A stretch of DNA of 25,180 bases from Verrucomicrobiia bacterium. GTDB taxonomy: Bacteria; Verrucomicrobiota; Verrucomicrobiia; Methylacidiphilales; CALFVM01. Each line of letters opens with the position of its first letter. The first letter of the stretch is position 1. Positions 8,900 to 24,523 of the stretch are shown in pieces. The stretch covers positions 1 to 25,180 of the forward strand of contig JBDNCR010000001.1 of NCBI GenBank assembly GCA_046719555.1. The letters run 5' to 3'. The notes below the pieces were generated by a model. The model made no database searches. It worked only from the letters and a program-made list of their open reading frames with translations, and was not told the DNA's origin. The position numbers and the translations under genes were made by a program.

Positions 8900-9175
8900 A
8901 TGAAAAAAATTCTTCTGGCGTTTGTTCTGTGCTTTTCCCCCAGCCTTTGGGCCGATGTGTATTTCGGGCCTGCATCGTCTTCCGGCACCTTTCGCGGTGA
9001 GATTACGGCGATTGAACCTGGGCGGGAGTCGATTACGGTTCGCTCGGCAGAGAACACGGTGAAGATGTTTCACGTTCCGGCGAATCGGATTGGTCGATAT
9101 CAGACGGGGCAGGTGGTGACGGTTTCCTACGAGGAGGCTTACGCCTGGCCTTTGCGGACGCGTTCGATCCGCTGA
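8900..9175 (+). CDS. Small secreted protein, probable OB-fold (DUF1344/CusF-like pattern)
   Basis: Sec signal [18 protein letters not shown]|D. The mature part [17 protein letters not shown]...F.V....[14 protein letters not shown] follows the G.I..ID.....ITL....L..GxxVxVxY OB-fold pattern. Family assignment is by eye only. Confidence 0.65.
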
Positions 9176-11373
9176 GGGTGGGGTTGGAGGCGGACCGCCC
9201 CGCATTTGTAGGCGGGTTGACGTGAATGGGGATCGACGATCCATGGGGTCAGCTGGTTGGCCTGCTGATCGTGCATGGGGATAAAGACGTGCCCCGGCGG
9301 GACGGTGGGGGTGACGCCGGCCCAGCCGGTGATGGAGCCCCGTGGCGAGTGGACGGTGAGGGGGTCACCGTCGGCGATGTGGGCAGCCTTGGCGTCGGTG
9401 GGATGGATCTCGATCCGAAGGCGGGAGGGATGAAGTTTGCGGAGGATGGCGGATTTCTCGGTTCGGCTCCCGGTGTGCCACTGGGAGGAGCTGCCGCGTC
9501 CGGTGAGCAGCCAGAGGGGGAAATCGGGGCTGGGCGTTTCTGGAGCAGGTGCGGGCGGGTCGAAGATCAGGCGGGCTTGGCCATCGGGGTGATAGAAGCG
9601 ACGATCTTGGAACAGGCGACGTTCTTGTTTGGAGGAATCGGGGAGGGGTGTGGCCGGGTAGGGCCATTGAATGCCGCCAAGCTCTTCGAGGTGGGCATAG
9701 TCGCGGATGCCGGTGATGTCGCAGGGTTGCCCGGCACTGCATTGTTTGAGGAGTTGGAACACCGCTTCGGGGGTGGTCCAACGGGTGAACAGGTGTCCGC
9801 AGCCCCAGGCATCGGCGAGGGCTCGGAAGATACGGAAATCGGAGAGGGCCTGGCCGGGAGGGCGGCGGACGGGACGGATGACGCCGATGCGGCGTTCGGA
9901 GTTGATGAAGGTTCCTTCTTTTTCGCCCCAACCGGCGGCGGGCAGGTAGAGATCGGCGCCTTGCGCAGTTTCCGTGGTGGGATACATGTCCTGAACCACG
10001 AGAAAGTCGAGTTGCTCCCGCAGACGGTGGAAGCGGTTCTGGTGAATCCAAGAGTGGGCGGGATTGGTCGCGATGATCCACAGGGCGCGGATGCGGCCTG
10101 CTTCAACGGCTTCGAGGATTTGATCGTAGGCCAGGCTGTTCTGATCGGGGATGCGGGCGGGGTCGATGTCGAGGATGCGGGCGATTTTGTCGCGGTGGGC
10201 GGGGTTGGTGAAGTCGTGGCCGCCGAGGAGGTTGGTGGTGTTGGAGAAAAGGCGGGAGCCCATGGCATTGCACTGGCCGGTGATGGAGTTGGCACCGGTG
10301 CCGGGCTGGCCGATGTTGCCGGTGATGAGGGCGAGGTTGATGATGGCCTGGGCGGTTCGGGTGGCTTGGTGGCTTTGATTGACGCCCATGGTCCACCAGA
10401 AGGAAATTCGTTGGCCGGAGGTGATGAGGGCGGCGAAGCGTTCGTAGGCGGCGGGGTCCAGCCCGGTTTCGGCCAGGACCCGATCGGGAGTGAAGTCGCG
10501 GGTGAAGGTTTCATAGGCGTCCAGGCCGTGGGCGTAGGTGGCGACGGTGGTCCGGTTGACCGCGCCACGGGCAAACGCTTCGCGAGCTAGCCCATAGAAG
10601 AGAGTGAGATCGGATTTCGGCCGTGCCGGGAGGTGAAGAGTCGAGGCGCAGGCGGTTTCGGTGCGTCGGGGATCGATGACGACAATTTCCGGGTTGCGGC
10701 GGTTCCGCATGACCCGCTGCCACATGATGGGATGGGCGATGCAGGGGTTGGCGCCGATGAAGACGAGGACATCGCTCTGTTCGAAATCAGCGTAGGTGAA
10801 CGGGGGTGCGTCGAAGCCGAAGGATTGTTTGTAAGCCGTAACGGCGGTGGCCATGCATTGGCGGGTGTTGCCATCGCCGTGCAGCATGCCCATGCCGAAT
10901 TTGGCTAAAGCGCCAAGGAAGGCCATCTCTTCGCAAACGATTTGCCCGGTGGAAAGAAAAGCGGCCGCATGGGGACCGTGGCGCGATTGAACGGAGCGGA
11001 TTCTGGAGGAGAATTCCTTGAGGGCTTCCGGCCAGGAAAGAGGACGGGTTATTTTGCCCCGCCGAAGCAACGGAGTGGTGCCGCGATCGGGGGCCTCGAG
11101 TGGGGCGAGGGCTTCCCAACCTTTGGGACAGGCCATGCCGAGGTTGACTGGATAGTGTGCGTCCGGGGTGAGGTTGACGGCACGGCCTTCGCGGAGATGG
11201 AGGGTGAGATTGCAGCCGGTGGAGCAGAAGCCACAGACCGAGCCGGTGACCGCGTCGGGCTGGTTGCGGAAGGGAACTTGTCCGAGTCCGAAACGGCCTG
11301 GCGTGCGCACCAACTCGGCCGTGAGCACGCCGTCCCATTCGCGCAGGGTCGGTTGGGGAAGTTTGAATTTCAT
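9139..11373 (-). CDS. nasA: Assimilatory-type nitrate reductase catalytic subunit (Mo-bisPGD, one [4Fe-4S]), 744 aa
   Basis: CGFCSTGC...CPKG N-terminal Fe-S motif, [11 protein letters not shown] (Mo-ligand Cys region of NasA/NarB/NapA), [29 protein letters not shown] and QWHTGSRT. No twin-arginine signal. Start at 11373 is supported by an ATGA overlap with the upstream gene; 11625 is an extension in the ORF track. Confidence 0.92.
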
Positions 11374-12860
11374 GATCCGGGCATTTTGGTGGCGACTCCG
11401 CTTTTGAAGTAGAGCCAGCGTTCGATCAGTTCGCCGAGAAGGGCCAGCAGCAGGGCGGCAGGGAGGGAGAGGAAAAAGAGAGGAATCGCCATCGCACCGA
11501 TCAGGAAACGGGCCAGGGTCCAACGGCGCAGAGGGCCGCGCAGCAGCAGCGCGGAGCGTTGTCGGTCGGTGAGGGTTGGAGACTGGGCATCTGAATTTTG
11601 AAGGGAAATCATGCGGGCTTCCCATGCGAGTTTCAAAATCAGAAGGGCGGGCAGCGCGGCGGGCAGGGCGAAGAGGGCGGTGGTCCCGAAGAAGCGGAGG
11701 AAGGTGCGTGAGCCGCGCCAGACCTGGCGGTGGGTGTCGTGATAGACCATGGCCGAGCAGAAGACACCGAGGATCCCGGTGACGATGGCGGCGGTGAGGG
11801 CGGCAGGAACGACCCAGGGTGGGGTCGGTGCGGGAGAGAAAGGCAAGGCAACTTCAAGGCCAAGGGTGGCGGTGGAGGCTGCGAGAAAGGTGCCAAGGGC
11901 GATGATTTCACGGCTGAGCCAGGAGGTGCGCCAGCCGAGAAAGGCGCGCCAGGCTTTGAGGGGCTGGCCGAGGTGAAGGATGCTGGCGGCGAGGCCGAGA
12001 TGGATGAGGACAACGGCGGCGATGAGCCAGGCAAGGGGTGAAGCTTGGAAGGTGGCGGCGATGAGAAGGCCGAGCCCGGTTTGGGTGAAAACGAGCATGA
12101 TGACGAGCGGCCCGTGACCTGGCTGAACGGTTGGTGCGGCGTGGTCCGCGGCACGGAGGGATTCGGCTAAAGGTTTGGTTGAAACGTAACGGGTGGTGGG
12201 GATGGTGATGCGGGGATCGGGGGTGTGGGGCAGAAAGACGCCTTCGGCGGCGCGGGCGCGGGCCGTGGAGGTGCGGATGACGCGGATGGCGATGGCCGAG
12301 GTCGGGCAGGCCTGAACGCAGGCCGGGGCTTCCCCTGCGGCAAGGCGTCCGTGGCACATGTCGCATTTGCGCACGATGCCGAGGCGGTCGGAATACTTCG
12401 GCACCTCGTAGGGACATTTCATGATGCAGTATTGGCAGCCGATGCACTGGTCATCGAGGTGGCGAACCACCCCGGTGACGGAATCTTTTTCGTAGGCGAG
12501 GACGGGGCAGCCGTGGGCGCAGCCAGGGTCGGCGCAGTGGTGGCAGGCCGTGGTGACGGTCTGGACGACAGCCTGGCCGTTGGCATGGCCTTGGAGGCGG
12601 CCGACTTCGCGCCAGCTTTCCTGGTCATCGAGGCCGTTGAGACTGTGACAGGCGGCGACGCAGGCTTTGCAGCCGGTGCATTTGTCGAGATCGACTTCGA
12701 AGGCGTATTGCTCGCCGGGACCTGGTGCGGAAAGAGGAATGAGATCGCGGTAGGTGCCCGCGAGGGCGTGGTCGCGGCGGTCGTGTTCGCGGGCGAAGCG
12801 AGCAACGGGGGTAAGGGTGCGCTGCTCGGAGAGAAGTTCGTCGATGAGGGTGGGACTCAT
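11370..12860 (-). CDS. Fused DmsB-like 4x[4Fe-4S] ferredoxin plus DmsC/YnfH (NrfD superfamily) membrane anchor, 496 aa
   Basis: Sixteen Cys in four groups ([44 protein letters not shown]), followed by ~7-8 TM segments with DmsC hallmarks [34 protein letters not shown] and [14 protein letters not shown] overlaps at both ends. Confidence 0.9.
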
Positions 12861-14548
12861 CCGAGCATTTCCTGGAGTTGGCCCACTTCGTGACGGGTGG
12901 TGAATTGTTGAAAAGACTCGCCGTCCTGCCGTTTGGCCAGATAGAGGCGCAGGAGTTTTTCGATGTGGCGTTTGGCCTGCTCGAAGGGCATGGCCTGGAA
13001 GAGTTGTCTTCCAATCGCACGGTTCTGGCCGAAGCCGCCCCCAACGCAAACGTGGTAGGCCTCCTGGCCATCACGGGTTTTGGCCCCGAGCAATCCGATG
13101 TCGCCCATGTAATGTTGGGCACAGGAGTGGGGGCAGCCGGTGAAGTGGATGTTGACGGGCTGGTCGAGGGAAAGACGCTGGTCGAGGTAACGAGCGAGTT
13201 CCAAGGCGTGGCCCTTGGTGTCGGTCGCGGCGTATTTGCAGTAACGGTTGCCGGTGCAGGCGATGATGCCGCTGGTCAGGTTGGATTGCCGCCAGTCCAA
13301 TCCGACTTTGATCAGCGCTTTTTTTACGGTTTCGACAAAGCCGTTGGGGATATTGGGAATGACGACGTTCTGCCAGACAGTCAGGCGCAGGTCACCGGAA
13401 CCGTAGTTTTCCGCCAGCTCGGCCAGACGATGAAGTTGCTTGGGGGTGATCTGGCCGATGGGCAACGCCACGCCGATGAAAGTCAGTCCTTCCTGCTTCT
13501 GTCGGTGAACGCCGATGTGGCTGTGGGGCAGCTCCTGGCAGGGGTAGGCGAGGGGAGCTTCTTCGAGCGCGGAGCGGGTCAACGGATGGCCGAGCAGTTT
13601 TTCGGTTTCCTCCCGATAACGTTCGAGGCTCCATTGTTCGAGCAGGTGTTTGAGACGGGCTTTTTTGCGGTCGCCGCGGTTGCCGTTGCGGATGAAGACA
13701 CGGATCAGGGCCACGATCACCCGGACAATTTCTTCCGGGGGCACGAGGACGCCGAGATCGCGGGCGAAGGCCTTGTGACCGGTGGCACCGCCGAGGGCGA
13801 TGCGGAAGCGGACTTCGGAGCCGACGCGGACGGCCTTGACGCCGATGTCATTGGTGTCCTCGACCGAGCCGATGAGTCCGCCGCCGTCAAAGGCGATGTT
13901 GAACTTGCGCGGCAGGTCGTAGAATTCGCGATGGGAGAGGATGAACTGGGAAAGTTTCTGCACGTAGGGCGTGCAGTCGATCAACTCGAGGGGATCGACT
14001 CCGGCGGTCGGATTGGCGGTGATGTTGCGGATGTTGTCGGCACCCGCCCCTTGGGTGTGGAGGCCGATGGCTTGCACTCGGCGCAGAAACTCCGGCGTAT
14101 CACGGGGGGCGATCAGACGGATTTGCAGGTTGGCGCGGGTGGTGACTTGGATGTAACCGGTGGTGAGCTGTGCGGCAAGGTCGGCGAGTTCATGGGCTTG
14201 GTAGGATTTGAGTTGTCCGCCGGGGATGCGGAGGCGGGCCATGAAGGCGTCTTTGACCGGGGTGAGATAAAACAAGCCGTGCCACTTGAAGCGGAAGATC
14301 TCCTCTTTATCGGGCGCTTGGTCGGCCCGCGCATTTTCTTCAATCCGATAATAGGAATCCAGCGGGTGCTCTTCTTTTTTGATCCGTTCTTCGGCAATGA
14401 GGATGGGTGGTTCCGCGGCATCGGGGGCCGGGGCCAAATCGCCGAAGCGGATGCCTTGGTCCTCAAGGCCTTTGAAGAAGCCCTGCAAATAGGACCTCTG
14501 GTCGGGCGCGAGATCTTTGCCGAGGATGGAAGTGGGAATGGGGGTCAT
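12857..14548 (-). CDS. nirA: Siroheme/[4Fe-4S] nitrite reductase, NirA family
   Basis: FKWHGLF, FMARLRIPGG, TTRANLQIR, GADNIRN, LPRKFNIA (nitrite-type Asn rather than the SiR RKFK), and siroheme/Fe-S ligands ACTGNRYC and TGCPHSCAQH. Confidence 0.92.
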   Translation of the reverse strand: MTPIPTSILGKDLAPDQRSYLQGFFKGLEDQGIRFGDLAPAPDAAEPPILIAEERIKKEEHPLDSYYRIEENARADQAPDKEEIFRFKWHGLFYLTPVKDAFMARLRIPGGQLKSYQAHELADLAAQLTTGYIQVTTRANLQIRLIAPRDTPEFLRRVQAIGLHTQGAGADNIRNITANPTAGVDPLELIDCTPYVQKLSQFILSHREFYDLPRKFNIAFDGGGLIGSVEDTNDIGVKAVRVGSEVRFRIALGGATGHKAFARDLGVLVPPEEIVRVIVALIRVFIRNGNRGDRKKARLKHLLEQWSLERYREETEKLLGHPLTRSALEEAPLAYPCQELPHSHIGVHRQKQEGLTFIGVALPIGQITPKQLHRLAELAENYGSGDLRLTVWQNVVIPNIPNGFVETVKKALIKVGLDWRQSNLTSGIIACTGNRYCKYAATDTKGHALELARYLDQRLSLDQPVNIHFTGCPHSCAQHYMGDIGLLGAKTRDGQEAYHVCVGGGFGQNRAIGRQLFQAMPFEQAKRHIEKLLRLYLAKRQDGESFQQFTTRHEVGQLQEMLG

Positions 14549-14568
14549 GGGGAGGAGTGTTTTGACGG

Positions 14569-16215
14569 TTAATACACGTCGCGCTGATAACGCTTTTGCG
14601 CTTGGAGAGTGTGGAGGAAGTCGGAGGCTTGGTCTGGGGAGAGACCGCCGACCTGGACGGCAATTTGGTGGAGCGCGGCTTCGACATCCTTGGCCATCCG
14701 CTTGGCATCTCCGCAGACGTAGAAATGGCCGCCCTCTTGGAGCCAGGACCAGAGTTCGGCGGCCTGTTCGAGCATCCGGTTTTGCACGTAGATTTTCTCC
14801 TGCTGATCGCGAGAAAAGGCGGTGTCTAGGCGGGTGAGAAGACCGTCTTGCTGCATGGCTTGGAGTTCGTCGCGGTAGAGGAAGTCGCAGGCGGCTTTTT
14901 GGTCGCCAAAGAAGAGCCAGTTCTTTCCTGGGGCGCCGATGGCGCGCCGTTCTTGGAGGAAGGCACGGAAAGGGGCGATGCCGGTGCCGGGGCCGACCAT
15001 GATCATGGGTCGGGAGGGGTCGGTGGGAGGTTTGAAGTTGGGCGAGCGGTGGACAAAGATGGGGAGGGGAGTGTCGGGACCGACCCGTTCAGCGAGGAAG
15101 GTGGAGCAGACGCCGGAGCAGAGGCGGCCGTTGAGTTGGTAGCGGACGACACCGACGGTGAGGTGAACTTCGCCGGGATGGGCTTTGGGGCTGGAGGAGA
15201 TGGAGTAGAGGCGGGGCTGGAGTTTTTTAAGGGGGGCAACCAGATCGGTCGCTGCGATGTGACCTGTGGGAAGCTCGGCCCGAAAGTGGCCGAGGTCGAG
15301 GTGCTCGGTGAGGGCTTTGCGCAAGGGGAAGTCCCCGATTTTGGGGAGGGTCACGGCTTCTTCACCATCGAGCCCGGCGGCATCCAGAATGTCCTGAACC
15401 AAGGCCGGATCATTCTGCGGAAGCACGCCGAGGGCATCGCCGACCTCGTAGGTGAGCCCGGAATCGCCGAGGAGGATTTCAAGGTGGCGGGTGTCTTTGG
15501 TAGAGCCGGGTCCGTTGAGGCGACGGTTGGTTTTGAGTCGGGCGAGGTAGGGATGAGTTTTGGAGAAGGAGGCCGGGGGTGGAGAGGCGGTGGGCGTGAG
15601 TTGGGGTGTTTGGGCGCCGACTCCGAGGGTCTGGATGAAGCCACGGAACCATTCGGCGGCGGGTGTTTCGTAGTCCACATCGCAATCGGTGCGGGGATAG
15701 ATCCGTTTGGCGCCGAGTTCTTCGAGCCTTTGGTCGAGGCGCTTACCGGCTTCGCAGAAGTGGACGTAGTTGGTGTCGCCGAGGGCCAGAACGGAATATT
15801 CGAGATGGGCGAGGGAGGGGGCGGAACCGTTCCGGATGAAATTCCAGAAGGCCTGAGCGTTGTCGGGCATGTCCCCATCGCCGTAGGTGCTGGTGATGAT
15901 GGCTAGCCGGGATTCTTTGGAGAAGTCGATCTTGGTGAATTCGTCCAGGCTGTGAACGCGGGAGTCGAAGCCGACGGCGCGGGCTTGTTGTGAGAATTTG
16001 CGGGCGAGTTGTTCGGAGGAGCCGGTTTGGGAGCCGAAAAGGAACAGCAGCGGCCCGTGGACCGGCGGCGGGGGGGAGTCCGCCGCCGACCGTGCGGTGC
16101 CGATGTGCCCTGCGGCCAGCAGGCCCGCCAAGTAGCCGTTGATCCAGGCCCGTTGTTCGGGGGAAAAGGGTGCGGTTTCGGGAATGAACGCAACGTCGGT
16201 TGGCGGTGGGGTCAT
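14569..16215 (-). CDS. cysJ: CysJ-like NADPH diflavin (FMN/FAD) reductase; probable electron donor to NirA, 548 aa
   Basis: Flavodoxin motifs FGSQTGSSE, TSTYGDGDMPDNA and LGDTNYVHFC; FAD/NADPH motifs RLYSISSS, GVCSTFL, MVGPGTGIAPFRAF, TAFSRDQ, YVCGDAKRMAKDV and RYQRDVY. The symbol denotes the family, not a proven sulfite role. A GTG at 16221 is an alternative start. Confidence 0.92.
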   Translation of the reverse strand: MTPPPTDVAFIPETAPFSPEQRAWINGYLAGLLAAGHIGTARSAADSPPPPVHGPLLFLFGSQTGSSEQLARKFSQQARAVGFDSRVHSLDEFTKIDFSKESRLAIITSTYGDGDMPDNAQAFWNFIRNGSAPSLAHLEYSVLALGDTNYVHFCEAGKRLDQRLEELGAKRIYPRTDCDVDYETPAAEWFRGFIQTLGVGAQTPQLTPTASPPPASFSKTHPYLARLKTNRRLNGPGSTKDTRHLEILLGDSGLTYEVGDALGVLPQNDPALVQDILDAAGLDGEEAVTLPKIGDFPLRKALTEHLDLGHFRAELPTGHIAATDLVAPLKKLQPRLYSISSSPKAHPGEVHLTVGVVRYQLNGRLCSGVCSTFLAERVGPDTPLPIFVHRSPNFKPPTDPSRPMIMVGPGTGIAPFRAFLQERRAIGAPGKNWLFFGDQKAACDFLYRDELQAMQQDGLLTRLDTAFSRDQQEKIYVQNRMLEQAAELWSWLQEGGHFYVCGDAKRMAKDVEAALHQIAVQVGGLSPDQASDFLHTLQAQKRYQRDVY

Positions 16216-16221
16216 GGGCAC

Positions 16222-17703
16222 CTAGAAGCTGATGAGGGCTTGGACGTAGATGAAATCGGCGTCGGCGGTTTGGCCGGTTGGGGCGGTGTCGGAGATGTAA
16301 CCGCCGGTGAAGAAGTGGGCGTAACCGGCTTCAAGCTTGAGCCATTGATTGAGGTCATACCAGAGGGTGAGGTCGATCTCGGACCCGACAAAGCCGGAGG
16401 GATTGCGGTTGAGGGCGTTGGCGTAGCGGGGGGCTCCGCCGACGGGTTGTTGGGCGGCGAAGCGCCAGACGTCCCGGGTTTCGGCCAACCAGAAAAGGTG
16501 GTAGTCGAGTTTGATCCGGAGTTTCGGCGTTGGTTGGACGGTGAGGCCGATGGCCGGGTTGTGCAGGTTTTGCCAGGAGAACCGATCCATGTAGCCGTAG
16601 AATTTGTGGTTGGTGGGGAAGAGATTTTGAAAGGTGTGGGAGATACCGTCGTTGGGGTCGCTGTCGCCTGAGCCGTAGTTGTACTCGAGGTGGAGCCGAG
16701 GTTTCCACGGGTGGGTGAAGGTGTAACCGCCCTCGATGTGGAGAGCCCCAGCGAGAAGGTCTTGCCGGTTGATGTTGATGGGATTTCCGCCAACGAGGGG
16801 GCCGAAGCCTTGGGGGTTGGAGAGGCCACCGATTTGGAAAGCAAATTCGGCGTTGGCGTCCCAGGGTCCGAAGGCCCCCTTTTTTGATTTCAGGCGGGTG
16901 CCGAGGGTGGCGTAGTCTCCGGCGGGGGCGGTGTTGCCATCGACCCGTTCGTCCCGTCCGGTGAAGGTGGTGGAGGGGGTGACTTGGGATTTGCTGCGCC
17001 AGAGCAGGAAGAGGTCGGAATCGAAGGAGGGGATGAGGTCGGTGGTGGCGTAGAGGCCGGTGAAGAGGTCGGTGGTGTCGGGATTGTTGAATCCTTCGGT
17101 TCGGTGGAGGACGACGTAGCCGGCGAAGGCATCGAGGGTGAAGCCGCCGTTTTGGTAGCTCAGGCGGAGGGCGTCGAAGGTTCGGGCATTGTTGTCCCAC
17201 TCAAAGGCACCGATCAGCCGCTCGTCACCGTAGGAGAGGATTTGCCGCCCGATTTTGAATCTGAGGGGCTGCCCCCAGAGGTTATCGAGTTGGAGGTAGC
17301 CCTGACGCAGGGCGATGGGGCTATCGTTGGAGATGAATTCGCGGGTGGCATCGTTCTGGGGGTTGTCAAAGAAGGTGCGGGAGTCTTGGAGTTGGGCGTA
17401 GGCGGTGAAGTTCTCAACGGGCTGGAACTTGAGTCCGAGGCGGAGCCGTTGGAGGAGCGCCTGGGAATCGCGGACGTCGGTGCTGTCGGAAAAATCGATC
17501 CAGTTGCTTCGCCACTCAAATCGTTCGCGGAACTGGAAGTCGAGGGTGAACTGATGATGGTAAAAGGTGATGGGTTGGCCGGGTTGCCAAGGGTCTTGGC
17601 GGAGTTTGGCTTGGGCCGAGGTTGGGCGGCCGGTGAGGGCGGGGGATCCGGCTTGGACGATGGTGGGGAGGAGGAGGGCGAGGAGGTAGAGATGAGGTTT
17701 CAT
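16222..17703 (-). CDS. Alginate export (AlgE-like) family outer-membrane beta-barrel; putative nitrate/nitrite porin
   Basis: Sec signal [88 protein letters not shown], and a C-terminal beta-signal YVQALISF. Embedded in the nitrate operon. Confidence 0.85.
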
Positions 17704-18602
17704 GGTGAAGCGGTTGAGGATGAGGTGGCGGCGGCCCGGGGTGGGGGAGCGGGGGCATGGAAGGGGATGATCTTGGGTCCGGGGTTGGAGGGCCGGTTGA
17801 CCAGGGGCCGGTCATGGCCGCGGAGGTGGGAAAGGTGATGGAGGAAGTGGAGGAGATGTTCGCGGTAAGTGTAGAAGCGGGGATCTTCGAGGAGGGCGTG
17901 TCGGTCGCGAGGTCGGGGGAAGTCGATGGGGAGGATGTCGCCGACTTCGGCCTCGGGTCCGTTGGTCATCATGACGACGCGATCGGAGAGATAGACGGCT
18001 TCATCGACGTCATGGGTCACCATGAGGGTGGTGATTTGGAAGCGGTTCCAGACTTCAAGGAGAACTTGTTGGAGTTCGTATTTGGTGAGTTTGTCGAGCA
18101 TGCCGAACGGCTCGTCGAGGAGTAGGATTTTGGGGGAAAGGGCAAAGGCGCGGGCGATGCCAACCCGCTGGCGCATGCCCTGGGAGAGTTCGGCCGGGCG
18201 TTGGTGCATGGCGTCGGCGAGGCCAACCACGGTGAGGTAGTATTCCGCGATTTGTCGGCGCTCGGCTTTGGGGGCGGTGAAGAAGACCTGATCCACGGCG
18301 AGCCTGACGTTTTGGTAGGCGGTCATCCAGGGGAGGAGGCAAGGGGCCTGGAAGACCACGCCGCGGTCTGGCCCGGGCTCATCCAGTTGGCGACCGTGCA
18401 GGAAGATGCCTCCGGAGGAGGCTTGTTGGAGCCCGGCGACCATGGAGAGCACGGTCGATTTGCCACAGCCGGAGTGGCCGATAAGGCAGACGAACTCGCC
18501 AGGGGCGATGTCGAGGTCAAAGTCTTTGACCACGGTGCAGGGGCCACTTGGGGTGGGGTAGACTTTATGGAGTCGAGAGAGCTGAAGGACGGGACGGGTC
18601 AT
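17700..18602 (-). CDS. nrtD: Nitrate/nitrite ABC transporter ATP-binding protein (NrtD-like), 300 aa
   Basis: Walker [15 protein letters not shown]-loop, LSQGMRQR signature, [11 protein letters not shown] and VTHDVDEA. Start at 18602 is supported by an ATGA overlap with the upstream ATPase stop. Confidence 0.9.
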
Positions 18603-19522
18603 GGCGCAGTTTGAATCGGTTCCTGGCGGCGTTCCGCCCGGCGACGTGGACCGCGTCGGGGGAGCCACCGGTCAACGAGGGTGAGGTGAGAAATGTCTTC
18701 GGGTTCGATGGCGGGGAGGGTCAGTTTTTGGTGAATGATGGAACGGCCTTGGTCCCGCTGGCGGAGGAGATAATCGAGGATGTGAAGGCGCATGGAGCGG
18801 AAGCGGGGGTCGTGGTTGAGCGCGGTCCGGTCGCGGGGCCGGTCGAGGTCCACCCGGACTTCAGGACCGAGGGAGGCGGCTGGTCCGAGAGAGAGGGGGA
18901 TGACGCGGTCGGCGAGCAGGAGGGCCTCATCCACGTCGTTGGTGATGAGGAGGACGGTTTTTTGTTCTTCTTGCCAGATGCGGCAGAGTTCGTCCTGGAG
19001 GGTGGACCGGGTCAGGGCGTCGAGCGCGCCGAGCGGTTCGTCCAAGAGCAGGACCTCTGGATTCATGGCCAGGCCGCGGGCCAGAGCGACCCGCTGGCGC
19101 ATGCCGCCGGAGAGTTGGCTGGGGCGCCGATCGCGGGCGTGGGCTAGCCCAACCATGCGGATGTATCGATCGATCCGATCGGCCCGGGCGGCGGCGGGCT
19201 CGGTTTGAAAGATTTGATCGACGGCCAGGGCAATGTTGCCGTGGACGGTCAGCCAAGGCAGGAGGGAGTAGTTCTGAAAGACGACGGCTCGTTCAGGGGA
19301 TGGGCCTTGGATCGGACGCCCTCGAAAGAGAACCTGGCCGTCGGTGGGTGTTTCGAGTCCTGCGAGAAGATTGATGAGGGTGGTTTTTCCGGAGCCGGAA
19401 TAGCCGACGATGGCGACGAACTCACCGGTCTGAACGGCAAGGTTGATGCCTCGCAACACTTCGTTGGCGGCGGAGCCTGAACCGAAAGTTTTTCCAGCCT
19501 GGCGAAATTCGAGAAGGGCCAT
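18599..19522 (-). CDS. nrtC: Nitrate/nitrite ABC transporter ATP-binding protein (NrtC-like ATPase domain only)
   Basis: [44 protein letters not shown] and ITNDVDEA (H-loop His replaced by Asn). Lacks the cyanobacterial C-terminal NrtA-like domain. Confidence 0.88.
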
Positions 19523-19528
19523 ATCCGA

Positions 19529-20533
19529 TTACCGTTGGTTGGGTTCGAAGGTGACGAGGGTTTGGAGGGCCAGCATCAGGCGGTCCAAAGCAAAGCCGAT
19601 AACGCCAATGGTGAAGATGGCCACCATGATCAGGGACAGACTCTGGGAGCTGCCGTTTTGGAACATGTCCCAGACGAATTTTCCGAGGCCAGGGTTCTGG
19701 GCCAGCATTTCGGCAGCGATGAGCACCATCCAGCCTACGCCGAGGGACAATCGGAGGCCGGTGAAGATGTAGGGCAGAGCGGCGGGCAGGACGATTTTGA
19801 AGATTTTGGCTGGCCAACTTAGGCGGAGCACGCGGGCGACGTTGAGGTAATCGGTGTCGATGGAGGCGACGCCAACGGCGGTGTTGATCAGGGTTGGCCA
19901 TAGGCAGCAGAGGGCCACGGTGATGGCGGAGGTGAGGAAGGCTTTGGTAAAAAGGGGATCGGGCGGGTTGTAAAGGGAGCCGACCAGGATCATGACGATC
20001 GGTAACCAGGCCAGGGGTGAGACGGGGCGGAAGATTTGGATGAACGGGTTTAAAGCGGTGTTCACGGCGCGGCTTAGTCCGCAGAGGATCCCGAGGGGCA
20101 CGGCGATACAGGAGGCGATGAGGAATCCGGTGAAAACGGTCCTCAGACTGGTGCCGATTTGGTCGAAGTAGGTGGGTCGTCCAGAGTAACGTCGTTCGGG
20201 AAAGGTTTGACCGGGATTCTCCGCAAGAAAGCGTTCCCGGCGTTCGGCTTGACGTTGGTAGAATTGGGCTTCCCGTTCTCGTTCGGCCCGGTGATCCTGG
20301 TAAAGACCGGCGGCGGCTTTCCAGACGTCGGAGGGTCCTGGCATGGTGGCGAAACCGACGTCGAGTCCGGCGAGAAAGTGGGACCAAAGTCCGAGGAAGA
20401 TGGCGAGGGCCAGCAGCGGTAAGCCGATCTGGGACAGAAGCGTTCTGGCGAAGTCGGCCGGAGGTCGGACGGTGAGGAGGCGATCGAGACCGTTGGGGAG
20501 GAGGCCGAGGTTGAAGGTGGGTTTGCGGTTCAT
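19529..20533 (-). CDS. nrtB: Nitrate/nitrite ABC transporter permease
   Basis: [42 protein letters not shown]-like [30 protein letters not shown] and [13 protein letters not shown]. Confidence 0.92.
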
Positions 20534-20539
20534 GGCGGG

Positions 20540-21853
20540 TTAGTTTTGGTGACCGATGCGGTGGAGCTTGAGGTAGGCGTTGGGCTGGCGTCCGTCGTAA
20601 GGAATGCCGTCAATGAACCCGTGATCGACCGGTTTGAAGCCGTCGGTTTCCGGGATGTCCGAGGCTTTCATTTTGCCCTCGGCAACCAGCGCGCGTGCGG
20701 CCTGGAGGTAGATGTCGGGACGATAGACTTTGCGGGCCTGTTCGTGGTACCAGGCGTCGGATTTGGGTTCAGGAATTTGGCCCCACCGCCGCATTTGGGT
20801 CAGGAACCAGACCGCGTCGCTGTAAAAAGGGTAGGTGGCGTGGTAGCGGAAGAAGACGTTGAAGTCGGGCATGTCCCGTTTGTCGCCTTTTTCAAACTCG
20901 AAGGTGCCGGTCATGCTGTTGGCGATGACCGCTTCATCCGCGCCAACATATTCGGGGCGGGAGAGGATTTTTGCGGCTTCTCTCCGGTTGGCCAGGCTGG
21001 CGTCGAGCCATTGCCCGGCGCGGAGCAAGGCTTTGATGACGGCGATGTGGGTTTGCGGGTTCCGCTCGGCCCAGTCGGCGGTGACGCCGAAGACTTTTTC
21101 CGGGTTGTTTTTCCAGATTTGTTCGTTGGTGACGACGGGCACGCCGATGCCTCTGAAGACGGCGGCCTGGTTCCAGGGTTCGCCGACGCAGTAGCCCTGG
21201 ATGGTGCCTTGAGCCAAGGTGGCGGGCATTTGCGGGGGAGGGGTGACGGAGATGAGGACGTCGGCTTGGGTGTTGCCATTGATGTCCTGGGGGGTGTAGA
21301 AGCCGGGATGAATGCCGGCGGCGGCGAGCCAATAGCGGAGTTCATAGTTGTGGGTGGAGACGGGGAAGACCACGCCCAGGTTCATGGGTTTGCCGGCGGC
21401 GGCCCTGGCTTCGACGACCGGTTTGAGCGAGGTCGCGGTGATGGGGTGTTTCGGTTTTTTTTGTCGGAGGTTGGGATCGTGTTTTTTCATTTCCTCCCAG
21501 ACCTGGTTGGAAACGGTGATGGCGTTGCCATTGAGGTCCATGCTGTAGGCGGTGATGATGTGGGCTTGGGAGCCGATGCCGATGGTGGCGGCGATGGGTT
21601 GGCCTGCCAGCATGTGGGCACCATCGAGTTCGCCGCTGATGACGCGATCGAGGAGGACTTTCCAATTGGCCTGGGCTTCGATGGTCACGTGGAGGCCTTC
21701 ATCTTCAAAGAACCCTTTTTCGTGGGCGATGACGATGGGGGCACAATCGGTCAGTTTGATGAAGCCGAGCTTGAGGTCGGGTTTCTCCAAGGCGGCAGCG
21801 GAACTGGCGGCGAGGAGGGTGAGGACTTGGGGGAGGAGGTGGAGGGCGGTCAT
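20540..21853 (-). CDS. nrtA: Periplasmic nitrate/nitrite-binding protein, CmpA/NrtA family
   Basis: Sec signal (…LLAASSAAA|LE), [40 protein letters not shown] (His), PPPQM, CVGEPWN and NNPEKVF (Lys; nitrate-type rather than the CmpA Glu). Confidence 0.93.
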
Positions 21854-22950
21854 GGGCGGGCGTTTTGGGGTTGTGGTTGAGGTTGGGGAAAGAGGGCTTG
21901 GCGATAGAGATCTTGGCGGAAGACCTGCGTTAACATGGGGCCGGGAGTCGGAGGTTCAGGGGGTAGGAGGCCCGCGGCCTGCATTTGTTGGAAGAGCAGG
22001 AGCGCCTTATCCGGAGAGGGATCGTTGGCGGCGGAACGGAAGAAGTGATGGAAGGCGGAGGGTTCGGCTTGTTGGCCGTTGCCTCGGTCAAAGGGGCCAA
22101 GGAGGGCTGGCTTGAGGATCTGGGGCGCGAGGTTGAGGTATTCCTTGCGGGCGAGGAGGTTGACCAATTCGGCCCGGCCTTCCGGGGTTTCGCACTGGCG
22201 ACAGGCGCGATCGAGGGCGCGGATGAGGGCGAGATGTTCGTCCGGGCGATTGACGGCAAATGCTCCGCGGACCAGGAGAATTTTCTCAGGATGGAGAGGG
22301 ATGATTTCGGAGCTTAGGGCGGGGCACCATCCGATTTGGGTCCGAACCGCTAGGGTGTTCCAGGGTTCTCCGACACAGAATCCGTCGATGGCGCCTGAGC
22401 CGAGGCTGCGCGCCATTTGTGGTGGGGGGAGGGTGACGATGCGGACATCACGTTCGGGGCGGAGGCCGGCTTGGGCGAGCCAGCGGCGGAGGAGGATGTG
22501 ATGCATGGAGTGGCTGGCAACGATGCCGAGGGTCATGCGGCGCGGGCGCTCGGACCGAGCCAGTTGGCCGAAGGTGGTGGCGTCGGTAACCCCTTTTTGG
22601 CGGAGGGCCCGGGAAAGGGTGATGGCGTTGCCCTGGAGGTTGAGGACAAAGGCGGTGAGGACGTCGGCCATCGGGCCGGCGAGGCCAAGCTTGATGGTGA
22701 AGGCCATGGGGGCCAGGGCTTGGGCGGCATCGATTTCACCAAAGACGAGACGCTCGCGGATGCTGGCCCAGCCGACTTCACGGACGAGCCGGAGGTGGAG
22801 TCCCTCGTCTCGGAAGAAGCCCCATTCCTGGGCGGCAACCACGGGGGCGCAGTCGGTGAGGGGAATGAAACCGAGGGCGAGGGTGGGGCGGCTGGTGCGC
22901 GGAGGGCGGCGGTGAGGGCCTGTTGATTTTTGGGCAACGGTGGCGGGCAT
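21850..22950 (-). CDS. nasS: Cytoplasmic NrtA-like nitrate/nitrite sensor (NasS-like), 366 aa
   Basis: [71 protein letters not shown] and HPEKIL. No hydrophobic signal peptide. First gene of the operon, with an ATGA overlap to nrtA. Start is placed at ATG 22950; the 23046 start comes from the palindrome. Confidence 0.8.
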
Positions 22951-22962
22951 GGCATGGAGGGG

Positions 22963-22977
22963 GCACCTGCCGTGCCA
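22963..22977 (-). promoter_or_regulatory. Candidate sigma54 (-24/-12) promoter of the nitrate operon
   Basis: The minus strand reads TGGCACGGCAGGTGC, i.e. GG-N10-GC, close to the consensus TGGCACG-N4-TTGC. Predicted +1 is about 22951, next to the nasS-like ATG at 22950. Confidence 0.6.
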
Positions 22978-23023
22978 TGGGGGTGGTGGAGGAGGTATTG
23001 ATTGCTTGAAATGATTTCCGGTT

Positions 23024-23046
23024 ATGCATGAATGGTGTTCATACAT
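23024..23046. promoter_or_regulatory. LysR-type T-N11-A dyad operator
   Basis: ATGcATGAA-TGGTG-TTCATaCAT. The core ATGAA-N5-TTCAT (23028-23042) has T23029-N11-A23041, lies in the divergent intergenic region and abuts the LysR start. Confidence 0.6.
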
Positions 23047-23947
23047 GGATGCGCCCTTGGAAATTCGCCAACTCCGGGCGTTTGTGAGTGTTGCGCGGAG
23101 CGGGAGTTTTACCCGGGCGGCGGCGCGGTTGAATCTGACGCAGTCGGCGGTGAGCCATGCGCTGCGGGGTTTGCAGGATCAGTTGGGCTGTCCGCTTTTA
23201 TACAAAAGTGGCCGCCGTGTGCATTTATCGCCACAAGGGGAGGTGCTTCTGCGGACCGCGGAGCGGGTGCTGGCGGAGGTGGATGGGATCCCGCAACAGT
23301 TGCGGGCCTTGGAGCGGCTGGACCGGGGCCGATTGCGGGTGGGGTGCAGCGCGGCCGGGTCGCAATTTATTTTGCCGCCGGTGTTGCGGGAGTTCAAAGA
23401 ATGTTTTCCCGGGTTTGATCTGGCGGTCCGTCCGGGAGACACCCCGGAAATTCAGGCGATGTTGTTGGCGGGTGAGCTGGATTTGGCGATTGCCCTGCGT
23501 CTGGAGGAGATGGGACCGTTGGATGGGCGAGAGATTTTTGTCGATGAGCTTTCATTTTTGGTCAGCCCGATGCATCCGTGGGCGGGCCGGAGTCGGGTGA
23601 GCCGAAAACAGATGGAAGGCCAAACGTATATTGTTTATCAGCGAGGGAGTGTGACGTTTCGGCTGGTGGAGGAGTATTTTTTGAAGTTGGGGGTGCGGCC
23701 CGGTTCGTTGATTGAGCTGGGAAGCATGGAGGCGATTAAGGAGTTGGTGAAGCTTGGGTTGGGCATCGGGGTGACGGCGTCGTGGATTGCGCGGGCGGAG
23801 CTGGAGGCTGGGTCGATTTTAACGGTGGAGCTGCGCCCGAAGATTCGCCGACGTTGGATGGTGTTGTGGATGAAGGGACGCCCCTTGAATTTGGCGGAGG
23901 AGACGTTTGTCGGATTGAGTGAATCGGTCGGGGCCAATGTGGTGTGA
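23045..23947 (+). CDS. LysR-family transcriptional regulator (CysL/CmpR-like effector domain), 300 aa
   Basis: wHTH LEIRQLRAFVSVARSGSFTRAAARLNLTQSAVSHALRGLQDQLG, GRLRVG, LLAGELDLAI and GSMEAIKELVKLGLGI. Divergent from the nitrate operon. Start at ATG 23045 (MDAPLEIRQL). Confidence 0.95.
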   Translation: MDAPLEIRQLRAFVSVARSGSFTRAAARLNLTQSAVSHALRGLQDQLGCPLLYKSGRRVHLSPQGEVLLRTAERVLAEVDGIPQQLRALERLDRGRLRVGCSAAGSQFILPPVLREFKECFPGFDLAVRPGDTPEIQAMLLAGELDLAIALRLEEMGPLDGREIFVDELSFLVSPMHPWAGRSRVSRKQMEGQTYIVYQRGSVTFRLVEEYFLKLGVRPGSLIELGSMEAIKELVKLGLGIGVTASWIARAELEAGSILTVELRPKIRRRWMVLWMKGRPLNLAEETFVGLSESVGANVV

Positions 23948-23974
23948 ATCCAGAGCTTGGCAGCCGCGAAGGGG

Positions 23975-24523
23975 TCAGGCGCGGGGTTGAAAGAAGGTTT
24001 CAACCCGTTGAAGGAGGTCGGGAACCGAGAGCATCCGGCCGACGCCTTGATAGCCACAGGCGAGGAGCCCTTCGTCTGGTCCCCAAAGTTCAACTCCGCG
24101 CGAGCGGAGGGTCGCGACGTGAGCTTGGGTGGCGGGGTGGAGCCACATTTTGCCATTCATGGCCGGAGCCAAGACGATGGGGGCGGGGGTGGCCAAGAGG
24201 ATGGCGGTGAGGGCGTCGGGGGCGAGGCCGAGGGCGGCTTGGGCGATGAGGTGGGCGGTGGCGGGAGCGACTAGGACGAGGTCGGCGGCGTCGGCCAGTT
24301 CGATGTGGGTGGGGCGTTCGGGTTGGTCTTCGCTCCAGAGGTCGGTGACGACAGGCCGGTGGGTGAGGGCGCTGAAGGTGAGTGGGGTGACGAAGCGTTG
24401 GGCTTCGGCGGTCATGACGACGTCGACCCTGGCCCCGGCTTGGGTCAGGGCGCTGGCCAGTTCAGGGGCTTTGCAGATGGCGATGGAGCCGGTAATGCCG
24501 AGGAGGATACGTTTGGAGGTCAC
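23975..24523 (-). CDS. coaC: Phosphopantothenoylcysteine decarboxylase (stand-alone CoaC, HFCD flavoprotein)
   Basis: ILLGITGSIA, VVMTAEAQRFVTP, HIELAD, LVAPATA, LAPAMNGKMW and the substrate-clamp Cys LACG. GTG start overlaps the gmk stop (GTGA). No CoaB domain. Confidence 0.88.
   Translation of the reverse strand: MTSKRILLGITGSIAICKAPELASALTQAGARVDVVMTAEAQRFVTPLTFSALTHRPVVTDLWSEDQPERPTHIELADAADLVLVAPATAHLIAQAALGLAPDALTAILLATPAPIVLAPAMNGKMWLHPATQAHVATLRSRGVELWGPDEGLLACGYQGVGRMLSVPDLLQRVETFFQPRA

Follow-up and report, generated by a model that had tools for sequence, protein, structure and literature searches.

The control of nitrate assimilation is understood in Proteobacteria, where NtrC acts together with NasS-NasT or NasR, and in cyanobacteria, where NtcA/NtcB, PII, and the regulatory domain of NrtC take part. 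No such understanding exists for Verrucomicrobiota and Planctomycetota, two phyla that abound in soil, lake, and marine habitats. Two described groups of cytoplasmic proteins with the NrtA fold are the nearest known relatives, in location or in sequence, of the protein considered here, which is encoded by the first gene of a nitrate-assimilation operon in a 25,180-nucleotide (nt) stretch of DNA from a Verrucomicrobiia bacterium (contig JBDNCR010000001.1 of assembly GCA_046719555.1; the whole stretch is referred to as the window). The first group is NasS, which keeps NasT inactive and lets it go on binding nitrate or nitrite (PMC3795266). The second comprises the C-terminal regulatory domains (CRDs) of the transporter ATPases NrtC and CmpC. 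In the crystal structure of the CmpC domain, the nitrate ligands are W319, H408, G452, and K481, and R315/E316, beside the ligand Trp, lock the two ATPase domains, which nitrate binding frees (PMC13287603). Mutation of the Lys reduces nitrate affinity in both the NrtC and the CmpC domain, and this position determines specificity for nitrate versus bicarbonate (PMC10945777, PMC13287603).

The operon in the window consists of ten genes on the minus strand, and the gene at its front (P0002; 21850-22950, minus strand, ATG at 22950) encodes a 366-amino-acid (aa) protein of the NMT1_2 family, hereafter the sensor. A divergent LysR-type regulator gene (HTH_1 and LysR_substrate domains) lies at 23024-23947 on the plus strand, with a probable true start at M8 (23045). 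We tentatively propose, with somewhat less than even confidence, that the sensor is the nitrate-gated, signal-sensing partner of this divergently encoded LysR regulator. The evidence consists of the conservation of the gene pair across genomes, the scarcity of any NasT-type partner, the predicted properties of the sensor protein, and a conserved control region between the two genes.

Conserved pairing of the sensor gene with a LysR gene

Among 81 Opitutales genomes, the sensor was found in 30, the LysR orthologue (always in single copy) in 31, and neither in 50. All 30 genomes with the sensor carry the LysR gene, which is adjacent and divergent in 29 and, in the remaining one, is separated from the sensor by assembly, with the two at the ends of two contigs. 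In the one Opitutales genome with the LysR gene and no sensor, the LysR gene lies near a contig edge. A locus scan with one genome per species, annotated by seed profiles from the window and from confirmed NasT/NasR genes, returned 80 loci and revealed three patterns. Proteobacteria have NasT, a cytoplasmic NasS, and nrtABD; in cyanobacteria the domain is fused to NrtC or CmpC; and Verrucomicrobiota of all major classes, together with two Planctomycetota, have a divergent LysR gene, the cytoplasmic protein, and nitrate genes. A divergent LysR gene is present in 31 of the 35 Verrucomicrobiota/Planctomycetota (PVC) loci having enough upstream DNA. The LysR gene is the only conserved regulatory neighbor of the sensor, and because of this obligate pairing its product is the most economical candidate for the sensor's partner. 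The best solved relative of the LysR protein is cyanobacterial NdhR/CcmR (5y2v; 125 bits), while NtcB (77 bits) and CynR are more distant.

Genes downstream of the LysR-sensor pair

The genes that follow the sensor vary. They are nrtABCD in 17 of the 24 PVC loci whose downstream sequence exceeds 4 kb, and the other arrangements include a major facilitator superfamily (MFS) transporter with a PP2C-kinase and NirA, a formate/nitrite transporter family (FNT) nitrite channel with NirA, NasA directly, and one urea-type ATP-binding cassette (ABC) system. The LysR-sensor pair also heads clusters without a transporter gene. In one family of small closed Opitutales genomes, LysR and the sensor are followed by NasA, a NirB-type nitrite reductase, and an MFS transporter. 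Four such closed genomes (99% completeness), all with the LysR-sensor pair, yielded no NrtC/NrtD-type ATPase at E ≤ 1e-55. Likewise, no NrtC/D protein above the family cutoff was found in the genomes of L012, L013, and L023, which are metagenome-assembled genomes (MAGs) with the pair. The closed genome G007 has nrtCD about 1.09 Mb from the pair, which is next to nirA.

Because the pair heads clusters with MFS, FNT, or ABC systems and occurs without NrtC/NrtD, the conserved unit is LysR plus sensor at the head of nitrate/nitrite reduction genes, whatever the uptake system. A detached subunit regulating the transporter ATPases cannot be the common function of the clade, and an extra role of this kind is possible in operons such as that of the window.

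In several Verrucomicrobiota, a gene for a fused PP2C phosphatase/Ser-Thr kinase follows the MFS nitrate transporter gene (L013, 8718-10394; L018, 8556-10298; L008, 2-1111), which suggests phosphorylation control of uptake in these nitrate clusters. In a closed Opitutales genome, a globin-domain gene (L095, 12392-13312) ends a NasA-NirB-MFS cluster and may serve nitric oxide detoxification alongside nitrate assimilation.

NasT, ANTAR proteins, and leader RNA

NasT belongs to the ANTAR proteins, and an initial ANTAR search matched in none of 14 control genomes; negatives were therefore accepted only after the search had its own positive control. This consisted of four proteobacterial genomes reached via loci of related proteins. 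Each of the four yielded exactly one ANTAR gene, directly upstream of an NrtA-family (NMT1_2) gene; three of these genes were of the NasT type and one was of the NasR type. No ANTAR gene was found in the source genome (assigned here to the order Opitutales; 2.13 Mb in 402 contigs, 74.5% complete), in the 81 Opitutales genomes (48 of high quality), or in the 7.5-Mb genome of Pelagicoccus mobilis. Among 201 Verrucomicrobiota genomes of at least 85% completeness, one had an ANTAR gene (L094, G097:C8:12216-15368), with an open frame of 387 aa.

A scan of positions 21500-24200 against Rfam gave no relevant match. The intergenic region between the sensor and LysR genes is 73 to 94 nt long, and the predicted 5' untranslated region (UTR) is about 1 to 2 nt. 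A NasT in the unassembled part of the source genome is very unlikely, because ANTAR proteins are practically absent from the order and the phylum and the control region leaves no room for antitermination.

The sequence-only reading of the window had described the sensor as an orphan, NasS-like protein with a divergent LysR gene as its neighbor and no ANTAR gene nearby, and had called for a genome-wide ANTAR search. The layout was as described, the search found nothing in the source genome or the Opitutales, and the notion of a NasS-like protein without NasT extends to the phylum. The word "orphan" is misleading since the sensor has a strictly conserved genomic partner in the LysR gene. Two options had been offered for its role. 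The sensor-LysR pairing is the favored one, and the free-standing ATPase subunit is disfavored as the conserved role by the MFS and FNT clusters and by the closed genomes without NrtC/NrtD.

Fold, location, and ligand site of the sensor

The sensor matches Pfam NMT1_2 with an E value of 2.7e-72 (244 bits; cutoff, 24.7). The nearest solved structures by sequence are the regulatory domains of NrtC (225 bits) and CmpC (210 bits), followed by NrtA (131 bits) and CmpA (124 bits), and the closest named homologues are from Puniceicoccaceae and Opitutaceae. An AlphaFold2 model built from 78 homologues has a mean predicted local distance difference test score of 94.3, with disorder confined to the first 20 residues. 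The modeled fold has two lobes and a C-terminal helical subdomain, as the NrtA-CmpA fold requires. The top Foldseek matches were the CmpC regulatory domain crystals 9uak and 9uai, NrtC 8wm7_C, and periplasmic NrtA 2g29. TM-scores ranged from 0.78 to 0.87 over the CmpC CRD, NrtC, and NrtA, with 0.87 against NrtC in the NrtBCD-PII complex (8wm7_C; root mean square deviation, 1.7) and 0.85 against 2g29.

Ahead of the first beta-strand is a polar, Pro- and Arg-rich stretch of 22 residues with a maximum Kyte-Doolittle value of 0.6. Neither a Sec/Tat signal peptide nor a lipobox was found in the sensor, and neither it nor 36 members of its clade have a hydrophobic segment before strand 1, while the adjoining NrtA has a hydrophobic leader. 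The motif RRPPR was considered as a Tat signal and rejected; no hydrophobic segment follows it, and the residues after it belong to strand 1 of the fold. These features of the sequence and the model indicate a cytoplasmic protein.

In an alignment to CmpC 9u9z_C, the four nitrate ligands correspond to W61 (W319), H150 (H408), G194 (G452), and K223 (K481) of the sensor, all of which are invariant across the 78-homologue alignment. Their codons span 22282-22770 on the minus strand (W61, 22768-22770; H150, 22501-22503; G194, 22369-22371; K223, 22282-22284). The sensor is thus predicted to bind nitrate, and probably nitrite as well. Specificity for bicarbonate or cyanate is not favored, the specificity residue being Lys as in NrtA and not Glu as in CmpA (PMC13287603). 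Both the lack of a signal peptide, seen in the polar N terminus as opposed to the hydrophobic leader of the neighboring NrtA, and three of the four nitrate contacts named in the sequence-only reading (Trp, His, and Lys) hold up in these comparisons. The fourth contact, Gln in the motif LQGNA (Q106), does not; its column contains H, Q, N, or G inside the clade and Asn in other groups, and G194 is a further ligand that had not been named.

A second conserved feature lies just upstream of the ligand span, at the codons of R57-E58 (22777-22782, minus strand), which align with CmpC R315/E316. R57 and E58 are conserved in 21 and 22 of 22 PVC clade members, respectively, in 6 and 7 of 7 NasS proteins, and in 10 and 11 of 11 fused domains, whereas 27 periplasmic proteins have Lys or Ala and then Gln, Glu, or Gly at this position. 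This distribution suggests that the pair forms a cleft-adjacent surface for ligand-sensitive partner binding in the cytoplasmic members of the fold. The PII-contact residues N564/K565 of NrtC correspond to S306/A307 in the sensor and are variable in the clade, although this is a weak test.

Phylogeny of the sensor

A 145-domain tree placed all 37 proteins with the LysR locus pattern in one clade (support, 99). In a mixture-model tree of 67 sequences, the PVC proteins fell on one side of a branch with a Shimodaira-Hasegawa-like approximate likelihood ratio test (SH-aLRT) support of 93, and the fused domains grouped together (98). In both trees, proteobacterial NasS grouped with the periplasmic NrtA type encoded in the window. 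A single clade of PVC proteins and proteobacterial NasS was rejected by the approximately unbiased (AU) test (p = 0.0225), a value to be taken with some caution since the clade groups were named after the first tree had been viewed. A tree holding the PVC clade and the cyanobacterial domains together was not rejected (p = 0.5). By these phylogenies, the sensor belongs to a Verrucomicrobiota/Planctomycetota clade of its own, separate from proteobacterial NasS, and the cyanobacterial domains are no more distant from this clade than any other group is.

Further NMT1_2 proteins were seen in some loci. The Verrucomicrobiota loci L021 (8634-9938) and L037 (8650-9948) have a third paralogue between nrtA and nrtB; it shows no obvious signal peptide and groups with the periplasmic type. 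A Chthoniobacterales MAG with the LysR-sensor pair also contains a contig (L089, G088:C45:1-9000) with a cyanobacterial-type nrtA-B-C-D set, whose NrtC (647 aa) includes the regulatory domain as a fusion. The G+C content of this contig, 62.5%, fits its genome (G088) rather than cyanobacteria, and mis-binning is possible. L054, which is labeled Sphingobacterium, resembles L089 in having a fused NrtC, with a G+C content of 67.7%. Fused NrtC may occur outside cyanobacteria, or the L089 and L054 contigs may be mis-binned.

The shared control region

Three candidate elements lie between the sensor and LysR genes. A sigma54-type -24/-12 element, TGGCACGGCAGGTGC (22963-22977, minus strand), has its GC 13 to 14 nt upstream of the sensor ATG. 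Because of this distance, transcription is predicted to start 1 to 2 nt ahead of the ATG, and relatives have a 5' UTR of no more than about 25 nt. An inverted repeat, ATGAACACCATTCAT (23028-23042), of the form ATGAA-N5-TTCAT is a putative LysR box of the T-N11-A type and lies 3 nt upstream of the probable LysR ATG at 23045. Between the box and the promoter, the A/T-rich element AAATCATTTCAAG (23005-23017, minus strand) is a candidate LysR activation site and is common to the nearest relatives only (the window, L001, and L003).

Comparison of 28 orthologous control regions, with shuffles giving the expected counts, revealed the box ATGAN-N5-NTCAT in 23 regions versus 0.2 in shuffles and GGCAY-N7-GC in 24 regions versus 1.8 in shuffles. 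The spacing from the box to the GG is 63 to 66 nt in nearly every locus and 65 to 66 nt in the window. A separate remark of the sequence-only reading on sigma54 gains support from this conserved -24/-12 element. The source genome encodes rpoN (sigma54) and four full bacterial enhancer-binding protein (bEBP) genes, i.e., genes for enhancer-binding activators, and the sensor promoter is predicted from its sequence to use sigma54. Two layers of control are suggested, a general nitrogen control via a sigma54 activator and a nitrate-specific control via LysR. It is unusual for a LysR regulator to be in phase with a sigma54 promoter.

The same region bears on the gene starts. The longest LysR open reading frame (ORF), from 23024, would contain the LysR box, while the ATG at 23045 gives a protein beginning MDAPLEIRQL; the annotated start at 23024 is probably too long and the true start is probably 23045. 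A longer sensor ORF reaching up to 23046 was rejected since it would cross the promoter and the LysR box and since homologues begin at the equivalent of 22950.

Proposed mechanism and alternative explanations

According to the proposed mechanism, the sensor would bind the LysR tetramer in one of its ligand states, and nitrate in the sensor cleft would alter or break this contact, as NasS frees NasT and the CmpC domain frees the ATPase domains. The LysR tetramer would occupy the ATGAA-N5-TTCAT box, whose distance to the sigma54-type promoter downstream is fixed, and transcription from this promoter would start just before the sensor ATG; a nitrate-specific layer would thereby be placed on top of general nitrogen control. 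With its gene at the front of the operon, the sensor would also feed back on its own regulator. A fuller version, in which an NrtA-fold sensor acts as the ligand-gated partner of LysR, LysR acts at a fixed distance from a sigma54 promoter, and this arrangement replaces NasS-NasT across Verrucomicrobiota and Planctomycetota, is possible and less probable than the pairing itself.

Several points weigh against this proposal. A divergent LysR gene beside the operon that it controls is the commonest LysR layout, so adjacency alone needs no interaction between the products, and LysR proteins normally bind a small-molecule inducer of their own. Four PVC loci (L008, L018, L027, and L029) have no adjacent LysR gene; three of these four genomes carry a LysR orthologue elsewhere, and in one no LysR orthologue was found at E ≤ 1e-30. 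The LysR-sensor pair accompanies nitrate-assimilation genes in general, being present in each of the 19 genomes with a NirA orthologue, and a shared pathway could explain this co-occurrence. The translational coupling of the sensor to nrtA in the window would also suit a transporter role. Sigma54 promoters require an AAA+ activator, and we know of no established case in which a LysR regulator controls one. Finally, we infer both the physical contact between the sensor and LysR and its sign, that is, whether the sensor acts as an anti-activator or as a coactivator.

The alternative with the most in its favor is that the sensor is a detached transporter-regulatory domain, a free-standing equivalent of the NrtC/CmpC C terminus that docks onto NrtC/NrtD and gates uptake by cytoplasmic nitrate, perhaps with PII. 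The best sequence and structure matches are these very domains, a tree joining the PVC clade with the cyanobacterial ones is not rejected (p = 0.5), and the ATPase-locking R315/E316 of CmpC are kept as R57/E58. Moreover, the NrtC of the window has no regulatory domain, the sensor gene is ATGA-coupled to nrtA, and nrtABCD follow in 17 of the 24 loci mentioned above. However, the same orthologue and its LysR gene head clusters with MFS, FNT, or no transporter, four closed genomes and three MAGs have the pair and no NrtC/D, and in G007 the pair lies about 1.09 Mb from nrtCD. R57/E58 are also kept in NasS and are thus not specific to ATPase docking, and the PII contacts N564/K565 are not kept (S306/A307, variable; a weak test). 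G088 appears to carry both a fused NrtC-CRD and the LysR-paired protein, which is weak support in view of possible mis-binning. This alternative is unlikely on balance, and such a role could add to the LysR role in the window. Less probable still is a sensor serving an unlinked partner other than LysR, such as a sigma54 enhancer-binding activator, a kinase, or PII, with LysR as an independent neighbor. The conserved sigma54-type promoter implies an AAA+ activator elsewhere, four genes for which are in the genome, some relatives have the sensor gene beside PP2C-kinase or hybrid histidine kinase genes, and four loci lack an adjacent LysR gene. Against this, no such partner is conserved in the neighborhood, where LysR is the only conserved regulatory gene (31 of 35 loci and 30 of 30 genomes).

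Improbable to a similar degree is a nonregulatory cytoplasmic protein that buffers imported nitrate/nitrite or passes it to NasA/NirA. The gene is always the first of clusters with nitrate or nitrite reductases and the ligand pocket is intact, but a one-to-one binder is a poor buffer, and the Arg-Glu pair, common only to the regulators of this fold, suggests a partner surface. Both cytoplasmic groups of the fold whose function has been tested, NasS and the NrtC/CmpC domains, serve in regulation (PMC3795266, PMC10945777, PMC13287603). The idea of a classical NasS with its NasT in the unassembled quarter of the genome draws on the 74.5% completeness of the assembly and is close to refuted by the ANTAR counts (0 of 81 Opitutales and 1 of 201 Verrucomicrobiota genomes versus 4 of 4 proteobacterial controls), by the lack of a leader RNA for antitermination, and by the AU test against a single clade with NasS (p = 0.0225).

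Operon layout and other features of the window

The sensor gene is followed on the minus strand by the transporter block nrtA-nrtB-nrtC-like-nrtD (17700-21853). The TGA stop of the sensor gene and the start of nrtA overlap as ATGA at 21850-21853. The block comprises nrtA (20540-21853), whose product has a signal peptide, nrtB (19529-20533), an nrtC-like ATPase gene without a CRD (18599-19522; 307 aa, ABC_tran only), and nrtD (17700-18668; 322 aa). Both ATPases belong to the ntrCD subfamily and neither has an additional domain, so that the description of nrtC as lacking the regulatory domain in the sequence-only reading was accurate. The remainder of the operon, at 9139-17703 on the minus strand, encodes an AlgE-like porin, a CysJ-like flavoprotein, NirA, an FeS-DmsC fusion, and NasA.

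The nrtA gene of the window is of a type near proteobacterial NasF and NasS (630 to 870 bits). Verrucomicrobiota operons hold two NrtA types, the other of which has a Tat signal (about 230 to 270 bits).

The GC skew of the window is +0.15 to +0.42 in each 1-kb bin of positions 1-25180, despite genes on both strands. Across the source genome the skew is bimodal, with a mean absolute value of 0.29, and exceeds 0.15 in 85% of contigs of at least 5 kb. This strand composition bias is far above usual bacterial values.

Comparison with known systems

The pairing suggests that nitrate use is switched on in a manner not yet described. With its recognizable operator and promoter, the conserved sensor-LysR module offers a testable model of control and a genomic marker of nitrate-responsive clusters in Verrucomicrobiota and Planctomycetota. 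The nitrate-binding fold would have entered cytoplasmic regulation on three separate occasions and with a different partner on each: an RNA-binding antiterminator, ABC ATPase domains, and probably a DNA-binding LysR protein. If the contact is true, it would be a new signaling pairing and a rare case of a LysR regulator under a separate sensor protein, cooperating with sigma54, and it would provide a nitrate-responsive protein switch for LysR regulators, of interest for biosensors.

Like NasS of Paracoccus denitrificans, Azotobacter, and Pseudomonas (PMC3795266), the sensor is predicted to be a soluble cytoplasmic protein with the NrtA fold, without a signal peptide and with the nitrate ligands, it is encoded with nitrate-assimilation genes, and it shares the Arg-Glu pair that precedes the ligand Trp. 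The analogy leads one to expect that a regulator is bound under ligand control. Unlike NasS, it has no ANTAR partner in its genome, its order, or practically its phylum, and no leader RNA; its conserved neighbor is LysR, it heads the structural operon and not a nasTS unit, and it belongs to a separate clade. The regulatory domains of NrtC and CmpC (8w9m/8wm7 and 9uai/9uak/9u9z; PMC10945777, PMC13287603) are the closest by sequence, with about 36% identity and 210 to 225 bits, and resemble the modeled sensor in fold (TM-scores of 0.78 to 0.87), in the W/H/G/K ligands, in the equivalents of R315/E316, and in cytoplasmic location. The sensor differs from them in being free-standing, in occurring without NrtBCD, in not keeping the PII contacts, and in being paired with LysR. 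With periplasmic NrtA, CmpA, and NasF (2g29, 2i48) it shares the fold and the nitrate pocket, having Lys as in NrtA and not Glu as in CmpA; it differs in lacking a signal peptide or lipobox and in having the Arg-Glu pair, and the operon encodes a separate, exported NrtA.

Among systems of other families, AmiC-AmiR is similar in that a sensor with a binding-protein fold steers a regulator by direct contact, and it differs in its protein families and in the DNA or RNA nature of the targets. In ThnR-ThnY, a LysR regulator uses a protein coregulator, and the families and targets differ from those of the sensor and its LysR neighbor. We know of no LysR regulator with demonstrated control by an NrtA-fold sensor, and literature searches, including those aimed at the pairing, found no description of a sensor-LysR pair of this kind. 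The sensor fits neither NasS nor the NrtC/CmpC domains because it lacks what defines each of them; it is NasS-like in location and in its probable logic, and like the NrtC/CmpC domains in sequence.

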